DNA of 64,000 nucleotides from Candidatus Bathyarchaeia archaeon (GCA_050013255.1 JBEKFP010000002.1:128001-192000), one strand, 5' to 3'. Numbered from the stretch's first letter, positions 48,420 to 58,318 are shown. A program made the numbers and translations. The notes: generated by a model not told the origin, from the letters alone.

Positions 48420-50816
48420 ATGAAAATTGCCCGAAATCTAGTACTTTGCCTCATCTTAGCGTTAGTGATTCTTGCACCTGCATTGAGTCCTGCGGAGGCA
48501 GTAATTACTCCTCTGAGTACAGGTATTTTTCCTTCCGGGACAATTGTTGTCCCAATGGACGGAAAGCAAAATGACAGGATTCATGTTTACGGCCTAGTTC
48601 ACGAGTTTCTGAAGTCTACTCCAAACTCACAGATTGCCCGCGTTATTGAGCCCCCTGATGTCACGTTACAGACGCAATTAACTCCGAGCGGGGACGTCTA
48701 TCAGGGTGGGCCGTTCCTTATCGATTCTTCATACGCCGCGGCCATCAATACTTTGTTGGGCAACTCGACTTTCTCTAAAGTGACAGTTACGCGTCTCACC
48801 GCCTCCTTTACGTCGAACAGAATTTTCTTCGTAAGACAGCCAACTAAGATTCTCGTAATCGGTGATGGTTATTGGGGTGAAACATATCTCACACTTTTGA
48901 GGATGGGGATAAGCTTCGATCGGGTGACGACTGACCAAATATTGGCCAACCCATCATTGATCAACCAATACACACTAATCGTACTCGACAGCCCGGGTTG
49001 GTACGGAAATCCGTCAGCCTACGTGCCTGCTCGCCGAGCCCAGATCCAAGCTGTCTATAACACAATTCAAGCTCGCGTCCAGGCTGGAAACGAGGTAATG
49101 TTTACTGACGCTGCACTGTTGGATTTGAACTCGACTTTCCCAGGCTATATTAAATTGGGACAAGGTGGAGAAGCATCTACCCCAACTGTGACTGTCTATA
49201 ATCCATCAAGAGGAGGGTTCACTCCTGAGTTCCCAGGTCAGTACTATAATTCAGGGCCAACCCCGAACAAAGCGAAGATCTTGACCGAGGAGGGAGCGGG
49301 GCAATGGGTGCCCACCGCTGTTCCAGCGGCGCACGCTGGCGATGTTAGAGTAATTATGGATACAACTAACTACGGCTACCCAGCCCCACAGATCCCCTAC
49401 GCGATTCTCGCATTCTACTTCCCGTACGGTAACGGAATAGTCGAAGGCTTGGCATTCCAACCCTACCAGCAACTTTACCCGAACTATGCTGACCAGAACG
49501 GATACTATGCAACCTACGAAATTTACGGGAACAAATTCGTCGAGGGTCCACAATCCGACTTCTTCATCACAGCAACGCCTACGGCAGAAACGGTATCCCA
49601 AGGTCAAACCGCAAGTTACAGTTTGGCTGTGACTTCGGTGGGCAGTTTTAGTTCAGGCATTTCTCTTCAAGTGACTGCTGGCTTACCCCCGGGGGTACAA
49701 GCAAGCATCGTGCCCTCCTCTGTTACACCGAGTTCAGGAGGGACAGTAACTTCTACCCTTACGATTCCGACATCTTTGACTACGCCCACTGGGACGTATA
49801 ACCTCACGATTACAGGAACCTCAACTCTCCCACTCACCACTCGAAGCGTAGTCGTGACTCTTACTATTCAACCAGCGGCATCAGACTTTACGATCACAGC
49901 CAGCCCCCAAGCGCCAATCCCCCTCGTAGTTAACCAGGGCCAGTGTGGAAACATCACCATCACCGTTAGCTCAATTGGTAACTTCAGCTCACCCGTTGCC
50001 TTGACTCTCACGAACCTTCCCGCGCATGTTTCAGCAAGTTTCATACCCACCGCTGCCCCTACCCCACCACCGGGCGGCACAGCGGTCTCCGCTCTGAAAT
50101 TATGCCCAGACTCTTCCTTGACCCCTAACAACTACACGATGACGGTTGTCGGGACGAGCGGGTCACAGGTTCACACGGTCGACGTTATCATAGATGTTCC
50201 GCAACCATCGTTTAATTCCCTCATCTACCTGATCGTGCTAGCGCTTCTTCTCCTATCCATTGGTTTAGGCTTGCTCGCTTTTTACCTCTCGAGAAAAGGT
50301 CCAAGAAGGTTGCTTCGGCCGCGAGCGCGCTACGTTTTGCCTCTTCCGACCATTCGTTGCCGTTATTGTGGAAGGGTCATGCCTATGCAGGCCGTATACT
50401 GCCCCTTCTGCGGAAGAACCCAAGTGATCCTCGCGCGACGGCCTCCTAGAGTGGTCTCGGGTAGGCGCGGGAGGAGTGTTATCGGATTTGCACTTTGCCT
50501 TGTCTCCGGAATCCTCGTTCTCCTCAACAGCGCCGTCCTCCTAGTACCCTCATTCTACGGGCCTCCAGTAAACTGGTCGACAATCTTCTTCTGGTTACCG
50601 GCGATAGGACAAAGCTATGCCTTCGCGCTGGGCGTCATCATCGGCCTTACGCTCATCATGGGCTCGATAATCATGGTCATGGGACACGGAGCGATCGCGG
50701 ATGTCGTCATATTTCCGTTTGCAGTCTTTAGCATCATAATCGGTGGAGGTTTTGTCGCCGGTTTTGTGCTCGGAGTAGTTGGCGGGATCCTTGGGGCCTT
50801 GAGACGTAATTCATGA
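48420..50816 (+). CDS. Large surface protein: signal peptide, alpha/beta domain, two Ig-like repeats, TM, zinc ribbon, terminal membrane domain
   Basis: Two SDF.ITA.P...SxGxFSS repeats, CRYC...CPFC, and a Gly-rich hydrophobic C-terminus (GGGFVAGFVLGVVGGILG). Confidence 0.75.
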   Translation: MKIARNLVLCLILALVILAPALSPAEAVITPLSTGIFPSGTIVVPMDGKQNDRIHVYGLVHEFLKSTPNSQIARVIEPPDVTLQTQLTPSGDVYQGGPFLIDSSYAAAINTLLGNSTFSKVTVTRLTASFTSNRIFFVRQPTKILVIGDGYWGETYLTLLRMGISFDRVTTDQILANPSLINQYTLIVLDSPGWYGNPSAYVPARRAQIQAVYNTIQARVQAGNEVMFTDAALLDLNSTFPGYIKLGQGGEASTPTVTVYNPSRGGFTPEFPGQYYNSGPTPNKAKILTEEGAGQWVPTAVPAAHAGDVRVIMDTTNYGYPAPQIPYAILAFYFPYGNGIVEGLAFQPYQQLYPNYADQNGYYATYEIYGNKFVEGPQSDFFITATPTAETVSQGQTASYSLAVTSVGSFSSGISLQVTAGLPPGVQASIVPSSVTPSSGGTVTSTLTIPTSLTTPTGTYNLTITGTSTLPLTTRSVVVTLTIQPAASDFTITASPQAPIPLVVNQGQCGNITITVSSIGNFSSPVALTLTNLPAHVSASFIPTAAPTPPPGGTAVSALKLCPDSSLTPNNYTMTVVGTSGSQVHTVDVIIDVPQPSFNSLIYLIVLALLLLSIGLGLLAFYLSRKGPRRLLRPRARYVLPLPTIRCRYCGRVMPMQAVYCPFCGRTQVILARRPPRVVSGRRGRSVIGFALCLVSGILVLLNSAVLLVPSFYGPPVNWSTIFFWLPAIGQSYAFALGVIIGLTLIMGSIIMVMGHGAIADVVIFPFAVFSIIIGGGFVAGFVLGVVGGILGALRRNS

Positions 50817-52977: not shown

Positions 52978-53120
52978 CTATACCCTGTCGATCTTGACTT
53001 GTTAGTAAGGCCTGCTGTGGGACAATTTTCGGTTGATGAAAATTCATGGGTTCAGACATACGCTTAAATACAATCCGAAGAGTAAATCCATTTATCAAAA
53101 AGGAGCAATCGAACGGAATA

Positions 53121-53429
53121 ATGCCGGAAGTGTGCCCCACTTGTGGGCTTCCTAAAGATCTCTGCGTCTGCGGAACCATTAGCATGGAACAGCAGCTTGT
53201 AAAGGTCCGCTTAGAAACGAGGAAATGGGGTAAAGCAACAACAATTATCGAGGGCATAAACTCGAAGAGTGTTAACCTCGGGGACCTCGGTGCCAAGTTG
53301 AAGACTAATTGTGCCTGTGGTGGCACCACCAAAGATGGCCTCATAATCCTTCAAGGCGATCACAGGAATAAAGTCAAGAAACTGCTTGTTCAAACTGGCT
53401 TTCCGGAAGGCTCAATTGAAATTCATTGA
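53121..53429 (+). CDS. Translation initiation factor aIF1 (SUI1 homolog)
   Basis: MPEVCPTCGLPKDLCVC, LKTNCACGGT and LQGDHR; ATG at 53121 preferred. Confidence 0.93.
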   Translation: MPEVCPTCGLPKDLCVCGTISMEQQLVKVRLETRKWGKATTIIEGINSKSVNLGDLGAKLKTNCACGGTTKDGLIILQGDHRNKVKKLLVQTGFPEGSIEIH

Positions 53430-53453: not shown

Positions 53454-53663
53454 ATGGGCGCTTTCTTCGACACCATGAAGAACCTCAAACATTCTGGGCC
53501 TGCGCCGAAGATCTGCCCAGAGTGTGGGAGCATGAAGGTGAAGCAGCAGGGCTCGTTGAATGGCTGGTTGATGCCGGCAGTCTATGCATGTGAGGAATGC
53601 GGTTATGTTGGCGGCATTGTTCTTGAGCTTGATGAAGAGAACGATGACCAAAAGAAAACATGA
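53454..53663 (+). CDS. Small zinc-ribbon protein
   Basis: CPECGS...YACEECGY. Confidence 0.75.
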   Translation: MGAFFDTMKNLKHSGPAPKICPECGSMKVKQQGSLNGWLMPAVYACEECGYVGGIVLELDEENDDQKKT

Positions 53664-53684: not shown

Positions 53685-53730
53685 GTACATTAATATACCG
53701 CTCACGCCTGAGGACGAGCCGTAGACCTAA

Positions 53731-54633
53731 TTGGAGCGGCTGGACTCACTGGACTCAAGAAACGAACTTCACCTCATTCCGTGGGTCGCCGTAGTTCTTC
53801 TGGTTTCTCTCACATTCGGTGGGTTGCAAACCGCATCGGCCGATCAAATTCTCACGCGCACACTGAGCGTGCAGCTAAGCACAGGCGACTACTTGGTGGT
53901 TCAAAGTGATAGGGCAAGCATACAGCAGGTGTTCGTTCAGGGCAACTTCTCAGCGACCAACATGACACGACTCGCCCATTATCCTGCGGGCGACTACGAG
54001 ATTCAAGCATTCAATCCAGGCAGTTTCGAGTTGAGATTCATTTTCGATTACCCTAGTGAGTATCAGATCAACTTGCTCACTAGGTCCTCAAATTCAAGTT
54101 CGCCCGGGAATAGTACAACTTACTACTTGTCGGGCGGTTCGTTTGAGCTTGACGTAACTGCGATCTTCAACGCGCGGCCTAACACTCCCCCAATTGCCGT
54201 CCCATCCCTGTCGCCTTGGGACAGCTTTCTTCAGTGGATTGGAAAGTTTGGGGAGGCGTTTCCGTTATGGGTGAAGGGGCTCTATCTTGCGCTCGGCCTC
54301 CAATTCTTTGGTGTGGGTGGCTTATGGATCGCGCGTGAGTCCAAGAGGAAGGAAACAGCAGGGCAGCGACTTGACCTGGGCGATAAGGCATACCTCTGGT
54401 TAGGTGTCGTCTACAAGTTCCTGGTGGTCTCTTTTGCTGCAATCATTGCCATTATGGGCGGTGAACTTCTCTTACTGTTTGTACTTCGTTTCATGTTCCT
54501 TGCCTCTCTAGACCTTCTGTCTTTGTGGGATCTTTTTGTCGTTGGCTTTGCGGCAGGAGCGATCATAATGGTCTACCTAATTCGGTTTAGCCTTGAGAAG
54601 GTTTTCGACCTCAAACCTGTGGAAGGTGAGTAG
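53731..54633 (+). CDS. Membrane protein: signal/TM, extracellular beta domain, three C-terminal TM helices
   Basis: Hydropathy pattern and sequons (NFS, NMT, NSS, NST); stop codon 2 nt before the AAA-Lon start. Confidence 0.8.
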   Translation: MERLDSLDSRNELHLIPWVAVVLLVSLTFGGLQTASADQILTRTLSVQLSTGDYLVVQSDRASIQQVFVQGNFSATNMTRLAHYPAGDYEIQAFNPGSFELRFIFDYPSEYQINLLTRSSNSSSPGNSTTYYLSGGSFELDVTAIFNARPNTPPIAVPSLSPWDSFLQWIGKFGEAFPLWVKGLYLALGLQFFGVGGLWIARESKRKETAGQRLDLGDKAYLWLGVVYKFLVVSFAAIIAIMGGELLLLFVLRFMFLASLDLLSLWDLFVVGFAAGAIIMVYLIRFSLEKVFDLKPVEGE

Positions 54634-54635
54634 TT

Positions 54636-57389
54636 ATGTCAAGTCAACTTGATGATTTGGAACGATATGTGCAGGCGCCTTCAGAACCTGAAGAGAACCT
54701 GGAGTGGTGGCGCAGGTTCAGAATATTGCGTTGGTTGAACTACGTACCGCTTCGTGCTGTCGATAAGGATTACGCGAAATGGCGGAAATCGCGAATATCG
54801 CCGAGGAAGTTCAGAAAAATACAGCAGCGCTTGGATAAGCTCTACCCGCCAGACAAATTCTCCTCAGTCAAACTCATCGGGCGCGAAAAAGAATACAACC
54901 TCCTGTTGGATTCTTTCAGGCTCCACGTCCTAAAGCACCCAATGCTTCGAAAATGGTTCGATAAAGACGAACTTCCGAAGGCCATCTGCCTAACCGGGGA
55001 AAGTGGAACCGGTAAGACTTTCCTCACGATGGTTTCTCTAAAGCAGATGCTACTTGAAGCCCACTCAAATGGCGTACTGCTCTCACCAATAATCATCAAA
55101 GGATCCGATGTCTTCTCAGAATACTACGGGCGGAGCACCAAGCAATTGAGTCGATTATTGGAGCGTGCTGCTTCAGCCCCTTCAGTGATCTACATAGATG
55201 AGTTCCAGAGTTTTGGAAAGAAGGTGAGAGGTGATTCTGGCACAGAACTGGAAGACACACGAGTTCAGGACGAGATAAACAGATGGCTCGATAAGATCCT
55301 AAGCAACGACGCACGCACCTTGGTAATTGTCGCTACAAATTCCTATGAACAAACGCGAGAAGACATTCGCCGCCGACTATCGCGGGTCGACCTTGACTCA
55401 GGAGTCACCCACGAGATGCTGCTGGCGATCATAAAGGACAGATTGTCAAGCGAAAGTTGGCGCGGAATTTCATCAGGTGAGATATTAGAGGTCTTGGAAA
55501 GAGAAGCGTCAATGCGCCGGCACGGTTCCATCACCCCAAATGATGTCCTAAGCGTTTTTAGAGAAGTGAAACGCGCGAAAGAGGTTCCACTGCTCGAGGC
55601 AATTCGAAGGTCTGTGCCTGGTCCGTTGTCCAAGTGGACCAAACCTAGGTACAGGGTAAGCCTCGAGGATTTTGCTCAGGCAGCGCACACGATGAAGTTC
55701 TATTCTGAGCGTGAAAAGTCGCAGGAAATTAGGGACGCGGTTTACATCGTCACCCCGAAGGATTCCAGAGAAGACATCGGCGGCCTTCATGACCTTAGGG
55801 ACAAAGTACTGAACCACATATCGCTCGCCTTCAACCGGAAAATGTCGGAGCTCGGATACGCCTCCAATTGTAGGTTCTTGCTGTTTGGGCCGCCAGGTAC
55901 CGGGAAGACGCTCCTCGCATTGGTTGCTGCAGCTGAGAATCGAGTTGCCTTCATCAAAGTCAGGGGAGGTGAACTGATGAGCGGTGCAAGTTACATAGGT
56001 GAACCCGAGAAACGGATTAAGGATCTATTTGCACTGGCCAGGCAGAGAACTCCGTGCATTCTTTTCCTCGACGAAGCCGACGCGATTTTCTGGGGAGCTG
56101 ACCCAACAGGTAACAAGATTCTTGCGCAAATAAAGGCCGAGTTGAGCGAGATTAAACCTGACGAAGGAATTGTGGTTATCGCCGCATCCAACAAGGAAAA
56201 TCTGATTGACCAAGCTACTAGGGATCGGTTCGAACCAAACGTATACTACGTACATCCACCGTTGAACGATGGTGAATGGAACGAGGTTGTGGAGATCCAC
56301 CTCAGAAAGTTCAGAAGGTTTCTACATCAGGAGATTGACCCGGCAAAAATCACACGGCTATTTAGAATGCAACGAATCTTGAGCCCGAGAGCTGCAGCCG
56401 AAACCATCTCCGAGGCACACAGGTTATGGGCTTCAGAATTGAGTGCGGTGGATGAGATTCGGACAGCTAAGGATGAGCAGGAGAAGCTCTTCGTCAAGAA
56501 GCGATACGAAGCGGACCTGAAACGGCTCCAATCCGTGATTGAAATGGAAGGCCACAAGTTATCGATGGAAAAAGTCGACGAGACTTGTTACCCAATCCGC
56601 CTGTACCACTTCGAAAGGGCAATTCAAGCGCTGGAGTCTAGCCAAGACAAACAGCGAAGAGAAATGGAAGAAGCCCTCATTCTGACCACGCCCACACCTG
56701 GAGCTTCATTCGGCCTCTACGCTGCTGATGATGGAACCGGTGGAATAATCACCGTAGAATGTTCAAGTAGACCGATAATCCCGGGAGAGAGACTCGTCTC
56801 CATAACAGGCAATTCCACTTCGATGATTGTAGGTCAGTCCGTCGTTCCGGACGAATCGGTTCTACAGAGCGCGCAAAACGCCGTAGAAGCGGTTAGGTCC
56901 TGGCTTTGGACGGCGTGCAACATGGACCTCAGCCGTTTGCATGTGCATTTCCAAGTTAGAAGCCTATTAGAAGGTGCCCCGGGGCAGGGAGTATCAGGGC
57001 CGAGTGCCGGTTTGGCGATGGTCCTAGCACTTTTCTCGGAACTTTCAGGCGTTCCGATTTCGCCTTCAATTGTTGCTACAGGAACAATCGGAGTTAAGCA
57101 TGACGTTGGCCCCGTAGGCGGACTAGGAGGGTACGGAACTCAGACTGGGAAGATTGTTGGAATCCTGAAGTCGAGACGTATACGTGTCACAGATTTGGTG
57201 TTGCCCATTGCAAACTTCGAAGCGGCGAGAGATGAAATGAGGATTCTGCAAGAAGAGGGGGTTTGCGTTCATCCTATACGTAACGTAGCAGAATGCTTGG
57301 AAGTTGTGTTCGGTGTTAGCGAACAGGGATTGATTGGAGAGATAAAAGAAAGGTACGAGACAGCTGCGATGCTAACTCAGCGGGCTTAG
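54636..57389 (+). CDS. Tandem classical-clade AAA ATPase fused to a Lon-type (S16) protease domain
   Basis: D1 GESGTGKT, IYIDE, ATN...IRRR; D2 DIGGL, GPPGTGKT, LFLDEAD, ASN..LIDQATRDRF; C-terminal VHFQ, GPSAG, ATGTI, PVGG...GK and VLPIAN. Confidence 0.88.
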   Translation: MSSQLDDLERYVQAPSEPEENLEWWRRFRILRWLNYVPLRAVDKDYAKWRKSRISPRKFRKIQQRLDKLYPPDKFSSVKLIGREKEYNLLLDSFRLHVLKHPMLRKWFDKDELPKAICLTGESGTGKTFLTMVSLKQMLLEAHSNGVLLSPIIIKGSDVFSEYYGRSTKQLSRLLERAASAPSVIYIDEFQSFGKKVRGDSGTELEDTRVQDEINRWLDKILSNDARTLVIVATNSYEQTREDIRRRLSRVDLDSGVTHEMLLAIIKDRLSSESWRGISSGEILEVLEREASMRRHGSITPNDVLSVFREVKRAKEVPLLEAIRRSVPGPLSKWTKPRYRVSLEDFAQAAHTMKFYSEREKSQEIRDAVYIVTPKDSREDIGGLHDLRDKVLNHISLAFNRKMSELGYASNCRFLLFGPPGTGKTLLALVAAAENRVAFIKVRGGELMSGASYIGEPEKRIKDLFALARQRTPCILFLDEADAIFWGADPTGNKILAQIKAELSEIKPDEGIVVIAASNKENLIDQATRDRFEPNVYYVHPPLNDGEWNEVVEIHLRKFRRFLHQEIDPAKITRLFRMQRILSPRAAAETISEAHRLWASELSAVDEIRTAKDEQEKLFVKKRYEADLKRLQSVIEMEGHKLSMEKVDETCYPIRLYHFERAIQALESSQDKQRREMEEALILTTPTPGASFGLYAADDGTGGIITVECSSRPIIPGERLVSITGNSTSMIVGQSVVPDESVLQSAQNAVEAVRSWLWTACNMDLSRLHVHFQVRSLLEGAPGQGVSGPSAGLAMVLALFSELSGVPISPSIVATGTIGVKHDVGPVGGLGGYGTQTGKIVGILKSRRIRVTDLVLPIANFEAARDEMRILQEEGVCVHPIRNVAECLEVVFGVSEQGLIGEIKERYETAAMLTQRA

Positions 57390-58318
57390 ATATCCAGTTT
57401 CAGTGATTCTTTGAGGCCCTTGTACCTGTTCCGGACAGTAACTTCAGTAACGTTAGCTACCTCAGCTATCTCCTTCTGGGTCTTCTTTTCCCCTTCTAGG
57501 ACGCACGCTACGTAGAGTGACGCTGCCGCAAGCCCCATGGGGTCTTTTCCGGCAACAATTCCCTTCATCTTTGCCTCGTTGATTATCTTAATCGCACGTT
57601 GCTGTGTGGGCATTGAAATTTCGACTTTCGTGGCAATCTTCGAAATGCATTTAACCGGATCTTCGACTGGCATTCGGAGGTCTAATTCGCGGACGAGTAG
57701 TCTATAACACCTTGCAACATCTTTCTTTCGAATCCTACTCGCAGCGGACACGTCTTTCAGTGTTCTCGGGGTTTCGGAAATCCTACAAGCTGCATAGAGT
57801 GATGCTGCGGCAATTGCAGCTATCGAACGACCTCTGACAAGTCCGTTGTCGAGGGCTTTTCTGTAGACTATGGCAGCTCGTTCCTTTATGGAGGCTGGTA
57901 TGTGCAACATGTCTGTTAGGCGGTCAAGTTCGGCCATTGCTTGAGCAAGATTCCTATCGGCCGAGGAGTGTACACGTGTTCTGATTTGCCACTTCCTTAG
58001 GCGAAGCATTTCAAGCCTGGTTGCTAGCGGAAGTTGACGACCGTACGCGTCTCGGTTGACGCGGTCGATGACCGTTGAAAGGCCCTTATCATGAATAGAG
58101 AATGACGTTGGGATACCCACGCGCCCGCGTTCATCCTTCTCTTCCTTCGTGAAGGCACGCCATTCGGGCCCTTGGTTCAGGGAATGTTCGCTGATAACCA
58201 AACCGCAATTCTGGCAGATTATCTCGCCTTGATCATAGTCCTCTACTAAGTTCGTGCTCCCACATTCGGGGCAGTTGGTTAGTTTTCCAACTTTCTTCGT
58301 TGTCGTGCTCGCACTCAA
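57386..58318 (-). CDS. tfb: Transcription initiation factor IIB
   Basis: CPECGS...CQNCG zinc ribbon, GPEWRAF, HDKGLST, LVRGRS and VTEVTVRNRYK. Confidence 0.97.
   Translation of the reverse strand: MSASTTTKKVGKLTNCPECGSTNLVEDYDQGEIICQNCGLVISEHSLNQGPEWRAFTKEEKDERGRVGIPTSFSIHDKGLSTVIDRVNRDAYGRQLPLATRLEMLRLRKWQIRTRVHSSADRNLAQAMAELDRLTDMLHIPASIKERAAIVYRKALDNGLVRGRSIAAIAAASLYAACRISETPRTLKDVSAASRIRKKDVARCYRLLVRELDLRMPVEDPVKCISKIATKVEISMPTQQRAIKIINEAKMKGIVAGKDPMGLAAASLYVACVLEGEKKTQKEIAEVANVTEVTVRNRYKGLKESLKLDI

Follow-up and report, generated by a model that had tools for sequence, protein, structure and literature searches.

A tandem AAA-Lon fusion protein encoded beside a membrane protein in Candidatus Bathyarchaeia, a candidate membrane-associated ATP-dependent protease

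Introduction

In archaea, Cdc48 docks on the 20S proteasome through a C-terminal HbYX motif. The proteasome and LonB are given in review as the only ATP-dependent proteases of archaea, and FtsH is absent from this domain of life (PMC4343526). The 2022 classification of Lon lists only LonA, LonB, LonC and LonBA, which are single-ring enzymes with Lon-type motors; LonA and LonBA have an A-type catalytic centre with Pro before the Ser, and in the LonA and LonB subfamilies the distance from the catalytic Ser to the catalytic Lys is 43, i.e. an invariant 42 residues lie between them (PMC9569914). Here, we analysed a 64,000-nucleotide (nt) stretch of DNA from a Candidatus Bathyarchaeia archaeon (GCA_050013255.1 JBEKFP010000002.1:128001-192000; hereafter the window, with positions counted from its first letter), in which two adjacent genes encode a 300-amino-acid (aa) membrane protein (the partner) and a 917-aa protein with two AAA modules and a Lon peptidase domain (the AAA-AAA-Lon protein). 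An earlier note on this DNA, made from the sequence alone, had proposed the pair as a new protease system.

We found that the architecture is apparently undescribed. The earlier note had allowed that the family might already be known, and full-text literature searches, with subscription journals outside their coverage, returned no published description of a tandem-AAA/Lon fusion. The best explanation of the locus, which we regard as reasonably probable, is that the operon encodes a self-contained ATP-dependent protease together with its membrane partner, forming a double-ring unfoldase-protease at the membrane.

Results

The 917-aa protein joins a Cdc48-type AAA tandem to a Lon peptidase domain

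Pfam matched the 917-aa protein twice with AAA (PF00004, 3.9e-49) and once with Lon_C (PF05362) over residues 684-891 (5.7e-11, 42.8 bits against a cut-off of 21.1). The same scan gave no match to CDC48_N, CDC48_2, Peptidase_M41 or any LonA- or LonB-type AAA model and otherwise returned only generic P-loop models, and a hydropathy scan detected no transmembrane (TM) segment. The chain ends in ...AAMLTQRA after the Lon domain, with no HbYX motif at the C-terminus. When the modules were compared with solved structures, the best PDB matches of the first AAA module (D1, residues 95-360) were the D1 modules of VAT and p97 (E 6e-18), and those of the second (D2, residues 363-557) were the D2 modules of the same two proteins (VAT 5g4g, E 4.6e-49). 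Since each module matched its own counterpart, the motor corresponds to a Cdc48-type D1-D2 tandem. The NCBIfam CDC48 model TIGR01243 aligned residues 99-560 colinearly with profile positions 198-639, at 160 bits against a cut-off of 802.65. The best PDB match of the peptidase domain was the P-domain of Archaeoglobus fulgidus LonB (1z0b, E 2.4e-8), an alignment in which GPS790 falls opposite the GDSAS of 1z0b and K839 opposite the Lys in VGGV-TQK, the dyad positions of that chain, our protein having six residues more in between. All NCBIfam Lon models scored the protein far below their cut-offs, and the FtsH model TIGR01241 reached 105 bits against a cut-off of 600.

An AlphaFold2 (AF2) model built from a 33-sequence alignment (mean predicted local distance difference test score, pLDDT, 78) contains short helices at residues 20-107 (pLDDT 61-74 in the N-terminal region), two AAA folds, a helical linker at 584-680 and an alpha/beta C-terminal domain. 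Foldseek ranked p97, VAT and Rix7 first for this model (E ~4e-27), and no solved chain among its matches holds all three modules. The segment ahead of D1, marked by WW...LR...PL...Y..W, has a net charge of about +13, and the linker between D2 and the peptidase is family-specific, distant relatives of 866-1120 aa aligning from the linker onward. Taken together, these results agree with the earlier note, which had read two classical AAA modules followed by a Lon S16 domain without a CDC48 N-domain or TM helix. All motifs that it quoted are present, namely WWRRFRILRWL at residues 24-34, SEYYG at 161-165, SYIG at 452-455, GPSAG at 788-792, ATGTI at 814-818, PVGG at 826-829 and VLPIAN at 855-860.

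Catalytic residues of all three modules are conserved across the family

We then aligned 69 family members of ~25-100% identity. There are 29 invariant positions, including the Walker A lysines K127 and K424, D479 and E480 of the D2 Walker B motif, N519, R531, G455 of the D2 pore loop, S790, G828/G829 and K839. A further set is at least 93% conserved (D188, E189, R245-247, G165 and W25; in the Lon domain P789, G792, G816, V827 and G838). In the N-terminal segment, W24/W25 are invariant in 33 sequences, and the WW motif is visible in all distant members. Judged by these residues, all three modules look active.

In 68 of the 69 members a Pro precedes the catalytic Ser, indicating an A-type centre. 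Ser790 and Lys839 are separated by 48 residues, and across the family 46-48 residues intervene, with single outliers of 43 and 54; expressed as Ser-to-Lys distance, this is 47-49 in 67 of the 69 members, the ortholog group having the value 49 and most other clades the value 47. The additional length is a Gly-rich insertion (GGLGGYGTQTGK) that follows the GG of PVGG and lies beside the catalytic Lys. As it is found family-wide, we regard it as a hallmark of the family rather than a peculiarity of this genome.

Several families reuse the Lon fold without catalysis, among them RadA/Sms, ComM and the ATPase-dead LonC. Descriptions of LonC are given in PMC3391209 and PMC13069640. On this model the Lon domain here would serve for oligomerisation or as a chaperone module, the protein being only an unfoldase or segregase, and the atypical Ser-Lys spacing could be taken in its favour. 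We consider this very improbable, because the invariance of Ser790, Lys839 and G828/G829, together with the near-invariance of the residues around them, is the pattern of an active site under selection.

The partner is a membrane protein whose gene lies immediately upstream

The junction of the two genes reads ...GAAGGTGAG TAG TT ATG, so that the gap is 2 nt, as the earlier note had stated. A Shine-Dalgarno-like GGTGA sits 8-12 nt 5' of the ATG of the protease gene; together with the 2-nt gap, this is a layout typical of translational coupling.

The partner found no family match in Pfam, NCBIfam or PADLOC, and every one of its 262 homologs is named "hypothetical protein". Hydropathy and an AF2 model (pLDDT 74.6) agree on a hydrophobic helix at the N-terminus, then a beta-rich domain and, at the C-terminus, three membrane helices, in line with the extracellular domain that the earlier note had assigned to this protein. 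A Foldseek search of the PDB with the partner returned Ig-like or beta-sandwich folds only, all of them weak matches (TM-score at most 0.19). In 22 partner sequences, W169, F177, P178, W180, Q191, F192, V195, G196, D215, G217, M242, G244, F256, S264, R285, D293 and P296 are invariant, and in the ortholog group conservation is much stronger in the membrane domain and tail than in the ectodomain. The positive-inside rule would place the basic loop 201-220 and the tail in the cytoplasm, within reach of the protease. A complex prediction with residues 1-360 of the AAA-AAA-Lon protein and residues 160-300 of the partner, both supplied as alignments and run without controls, gave a score of 0.01, which counts neither for nor against binding.

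A membrane protein of the same topology accompanies the protease gene in divergent lineages

Of the 39 loci examined, which come from Bathyarchaeia, Marsarchaeota, Nitrososphaerales and other lineages of the phylum, 38 encode a membrane protein of the same topology next to the protease gene. At orthologous loci, where the AAA-AAA-Lon proteins are 59-100% identical, the partner lies directly upstream in 14 of 14 cases (32-99% identity by tblastn), and the gap to the upstream open reading frame (ORF), where one was called, ranges from -4 to +25 nt. In a second clade, 36-37% identical and found within the same taxonomic order, four paralog loci encode an overlapping 124-134-aa protein with three TM segments and no ectodomain. 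We also examined 20 loci in other families of the phylum. At 18 of them an ORF of 229-408 aa lies upstream in the same direction, encoding one TM segment near the N-terminus and 2-4 near the C-terminus, at gaps of -53 to +127 nt; at the remaining two, both from one family, the same kind of protein is adjacent and divergently oriented. The arrangement recurs on contigs with the labels Marsarchaeota and Nitrososphaerales, where the partners measure 230-246 and 416-441 aa. The neighbourhood is thus kept far beyond the genus, where the earlier note had asked about its conservation; what is kept is position and topology, without measurable sequence conservation across clades.

We also noted a subgroup of 1007-1036 aa (P0144, P0149 and P0191) in which a soluble N-terminal extension of ~100-180 aa replaces the region of the WW motif; this subgroup may use a different partner.

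The AAA-AAA-Lon protein could instead be a soluble cytoplasmic quality-control enzyme whose membrane-protein neighbour is merely co-transcribed and functionally unlinked. It has no TM helix of its own, one long variant lacks a membrane neighbour, and the partners share no sequence conservation across clades, all of which would suit a soluble enzyme. Even so, a same-topology membrane protein persists at nearly every locus though the AAA-AAA-Lon protein has diverged to ~30-37% identity and the other neighbours differ, which is hard to explain without a functional link, and we consider an unlinked soluble enzyme improbable.

More plausible, though still unlikely in our judgement, is that the partner is not an anchor but a dedicated substrate or sensor: an extracytoplasmic signal received by the variable beta-sandwich would expose the cytoplasmic tail or loop, whereupon the AAA-Lon machine would extract and destroy the partner, in regulated proteolysis resembling the anti-sigma factor and regulated intramembrane proteolysis cascades. 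From clade to clade the ectodomain differs widely in length and sequence (partners of 124-441 aa), as expected of a sensing module, the tail motif FDLKPxE is conserved in the ortholog group and could be a degron, and tight gene coupling is equally compatible with this role. On the other side, the partner of the paralog group has three TM segments only and no ectodomain, so sensing cannot be the common function. Moreover, the genes next to the pair (aIF1/SUI1 and TFB in this window, unrelated ones at other loci) include no conserved transcription factor or output gene, and co-directional, often overlapping genes are more usual for subunits of a complex.

The family is widespread in the phylum and is not an assembly artefact

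More than 120 full-length homologs at 60-100% identity have the same Pfam content (JGI, ENA, NCBI and Logan assemblies), a recurrence that chance would not produce. The close homologs carry the label Candidatus Bathyarchaeia, and the only database names for the family are "AAA family ATPase", "SpoVK/Ycf46/Vps4" and "transitional ER ATPase". A wide search with residues 580-917 against 1.8 billion representatives recovered about 20 clusters (at 50% identity) of 866-1120-aa proteins, and all 10 clusters scanned for domains contain AAA twice plus Lon_C. The architecture search across archaeal genomes that the earlier note had suggested was made on an even sample of the phylum, where the linker-plus-Lon region occurs in 49 of 301 genomes and 21 of 123 genera, in nearly all of these genomes in open frames of ~900-950 aa and in three in shorter, cut frames.

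The earlier note had named a chimeric assembly as a danger to its reading. This is ruled out, since the same full-length architecture occurs in more than 120 protein clusters from four sources, i.e. in independent assemblies; uninterrupted frames of ~900 aa are also present in many of the relatives' genomes searched. We considered, and rejected, fusion to an N-terminal membrane anchor as well: the one candidate among the long representatives, P0167 (1067 aa), shows a single, weakly hydrophobic segment at its N-terminus, which is not convincing.

Variant copies were met in the same searches. A marine Nitrososphaerales version of 1120 aa (P0280 and P0150, at L021:4001-7363 and L022:4001-7363, and also in Tara samples) carries a C-terminal BSP domain (PF04450, "peptidase of plants and bacteria") after the Lon domain, placing two putative peptidase modules on one double-AAA motor. 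NCBI records of metagenome-assembled genomes with the bacterial labels Acidoferrales, Dormibacteraeota and Terriglobales carry the gene pair at 77-80% identity to the Bathyarchaeia protein (P0047, P0053, P0054 and P0069; partners P0387 and P0423); most likely, archaeal contigs were mis-binned. One genome of the same genus has its protease gene broken in two near residue 690, the second piece containing a single in-frame TGA (G016:C3:216741-219483), and in another genome partial copies full of stop codons lie next to a partial copy with one in-frame TAG (G004:C12:10264-13340). These could be pseudogenisation, duplication remnants or assembly errors.

The pair lies in a housekeeping neighbourhood of a genome without FtsH

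The positions of the genes, their domains and their neighbours are given in Table 1. With aIF1/SUI1 upstream and TFB downstream, the pair is predicted to form a two-gene operon in a housekeeping neighbourhood.

Table 1. Positions in the window of the gene pair, its domains and its neighbours
Feature	Position	Strand	Details
Protease gene, 917-aa AAA-AAA-Lon protein	54636-57389	+	ORF with ATG start
N-terminal basic/aromatic region, residues 21-80	54696-54875	+	18 K/R, 5 D/E, 10 W/F/Y; motif WW-x5-LR-x6-PL ... Y-x2-W
D1 classical AAA module, residues ~100-360	54933-55715	+	Walker A K127; Walker B D188/E189; pore loop Y164-G165; sensor-1 N235; R245-R247
D2 classical AAA module, residues ~370-600	55743-56435	+	Walker A K424; Walker B D479/E480; pore loop (Y/W/F)-x-G455; sensor-1 N519; R531; Pfam AAA 415-536
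Helical linker between D2 and peptidase, residues ~601-683	56436-56684	+	AF2 helices 584-680
Lon S16 peptidase domain, residues 684-891	56685-57308	+	Lon_C hidden Markov model; Ser790 at 57003-57005, Lys839 at 57150-57152
Partner gene, 300-aa membrane protein	53731-54633	+	ORF with TTG start; no database family
Partner N-terminal hydrophobic helix, residues 15-35	53773-53835	+	Signal anchor or signal peptide; hydropathy and AF2
Partner beta-sandwich, residues 41-147	53851-54171	+	Predicted extracytoplasmic; AF2 strands, pLDDT ~76-88; poorly conserved
Partner membrane domain and tail, residues 162-300	54214-54630	+	Interfacial helix 162-175; membrane helices 179-210, 216-256, 265-292; tail FDLKP(V/I/M)E; AF2
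Candidate archaeal TATA box TTAATATA	53690-53697	+	~38 nt 5' of partner TTG; read from the sequence; putative function
aIF1/SUI1 gene	53046-53429		Upstream of the gene pair
69-aa four-Cys ORF	53454-53663	+	Between aIF1/SUI1 and partner genes
TFB gene	57386-58318	-	Convergent, downstream; overlaps the stop of the protease gene

The 69-aa ORF encodes a zinc-ribbon-like small protein with two Cys pairs (CPEC ... CEEC). Farther upstream, a 798-aa ORF at 48420-50816 (+) matched no Pfam family at E <=0.001.

Because ATPase-plus-protease pairs of the IetAS type act in anti-virus defence, we also asked how defence models score here. PADLOC IetA models match D2 at 112 bits and the NCBIfam model IteA_antiphage (NF042959) reaches 107.6 bits, but the latter lies far below its cut-off of 510, and only the generic AAA core, in the PADLOC matches that of D2, is covered. 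Further, the gene is single-copy and occurs across the phylum, a copy being found in 16 of the 22 listed genomes of the same genus, and the locus is flanked by housekeeping genes of translation and transcription and is not part of a defence island. For the sub-cut-off score, the matches confined to the D2 core and the housekeeping locus, the defence reading was rejected as scarcely credible.

The genome from which the window comes is 2.46 Mb in three contigs and is estimated to be 100% complete. We inventoried its Lon_C-, M41-, PAN- and proteasome-type families. There are three genes for 20S proteasome subunits and two Cdc48 paralogs of 730 aa; no FtsH M41 domain was found in this genome, and nothing in it reached the cut-off for PAN. 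The sole other Lon_C protein has 796 aa (G000:C3:2875-5265, L024, minus strand) and matches LonC_helical, AAA_32, LonB_AAA-LID and Lon_C, which shows that these models work in this organism. Having a GDSAS centre of the B type and no predicted TM segment, it is a soluble LonC/LonB-like enzyme and not a membrane LonB. We also compared the distribution of the family with that of canonical LonB; the LonB model TIGR00764 exceeded its cut-off in none of the 301 genomes of the phylum, which makes the comparison uninformative on whether the two replace each other. Within the families tested, the AAA-AAA-Lon pair is accordingly the only candidate found here for a membrane-associated ATP-dependent protease.

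Discussion

Compared with described machines, the AAA-AAA-Lon protein stands closest in sequence and fold to Cdc48/VAT/p97, with which it shares the colinear tandem of classical AAA modules and, in both modules, Walker A and B motifs, sensor-1, Arg fingers and aromatic pore loops. It differs from them in lacking the double-psi-barrel N-domain, TIGR01243 aligning only from profile position 198, and in having its peptidase fused in cis instead of docked in trans, with no HbYX. With the Lon proteases (MEROPS S16) it shares an S16 peptidase that follows the ATPase in one chain and a Ser-Lys dyad, with LonA and LonBA the A-type centre with Pro before Ser, and with archaeal LonB probably the nature of a membrane-associated ATP-dependent protease. 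Unlike LonA, LonB, LonC and LonBA, its motor consists of two classical-clade AAA modules and not of one Lon-type AAA+ module, and no Lon-type AAA model matches it. It also lacks the N-domain of LonA and the TM insertion of archaeal LonB (TIGR00764 gave 33.4 bits against a cut-off of 516.6, over the P domain only), and 46-48 residues separate Ser and Lys in its family against 42 in LonA and LonB.

FtsH and the m-AAA and i-AAA proteases, which work with HflK/C or prohibitins, likewise couple a classical-clade AAA motor to a peptidase in cis, and action at the membrane is predicted for our protein too. In contrast to FtsH, it has two AAA rings and not one, a Ser-Lys S16 peptidase and not a Zn M41 peptidase, and no TM helices of its own, the membrane part being a separate gene product. 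Given that FtsH is absent from archaea and from this genome, the protein may fill the FtsH niche. Two stacked ATPase rings feeding a serine peptidase chamber, as predicted here, are also found in ClpAP and ClpCP; there, ClpP is a separate S14 tetradecamer with a 6:7 mismatch, whereas the fused peptidase gives a ratio of 1:1. Clp ATPases are not classical-clade throughout. Taken together, model scores below the cut-offs and missing defining features support the earlier note in placing the architecture outside LonA, LonB, FtsH and Cdc48, and place it outside LonC and LonBA as well. The family would belong among the ATP-dependent self-compartmentalising proteases, a ring and ATP-stimulated degradation being predicted from its sequence.

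Judging from Cdc48/VAT, Lon and FtsH, we consider a hexamer the most likely form of the protease, in which two AAA rings of the Cdc48/VAT type, D1 and D2, would be stacked. The pore loops Y164-G165 and Y453-x-G455 would thread the substrate into a fused ring of Ser790-Lys839 sites, such that one polypeptide would do the work of Cdc48 plus the 20S proteasome. The basic and aromatic N-terminal face may meet the membrane and dock on the membrane domain, cytoplasmic loop and tail of the partner, which would act as a tether or adaptor, and the machine at the membrane would be a functional analogue of FtsH or of membrane-bound LonB. We infer the hexamer, ATP-dependent proteolysis, partner binding and membrane-protein or membrane-proximal substrates from these comparisons; tethering or regulation by the partner, and membrane proteins as substrates, are suggested by gene order and topology.

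Several observations weigh against this explanation. The AF2 model of the AAA-AAA-Lon protein has a predicted template modelling score of 0.48, so the arrangement of its domains is not reliable. The Ser-Lys spacing departs from the invariant 42 of LonA and LonB, which bears on the predicted geometry of the active site. The variant P0144 (L023:3911-7021, 1036 aa), which has the soluble N-terminal extension, is without an adjacent co-directional membrane gene. Finally, homology of the partners across clades is unsupported: a hidden Markov model of the ortholog group run against 26 partners gave a best E of 3.9e-5 in that 26-sequence database, and hhalign gave a probability of 12%. In view of these marginal values, we claim across clades a conserved position and topology, and not sequence homology.

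If the explanation of the locus as a membrane-associated double-ring protease is true, a new architecture, a Cdc48-type double ring with a Lon peptidase, would join the short list of AAA+ proteases, and classical AAA motors would prove to have been joined not only to the M41 peptidase of FtsH but also to one of the S16 type. The protein would also offer a natural single-chain model for the hand-over of substrate from a double-ring unfoldase to a protease. More tentatively, and at a strength that falls short of probable, the pair may represent an undescribed class of ATP-dependent protease, the third in archaea after the proteasome and LonB: a Cdc48-Lon hybrid that a dedicated partner would hold at the membrane for FtsH-like quality control, in which membrane proteins are extracted and degraded. 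Through its variable ectodomain, the partner would then link extracellular events to intracellular proteolysis. [quoted passage not shown]

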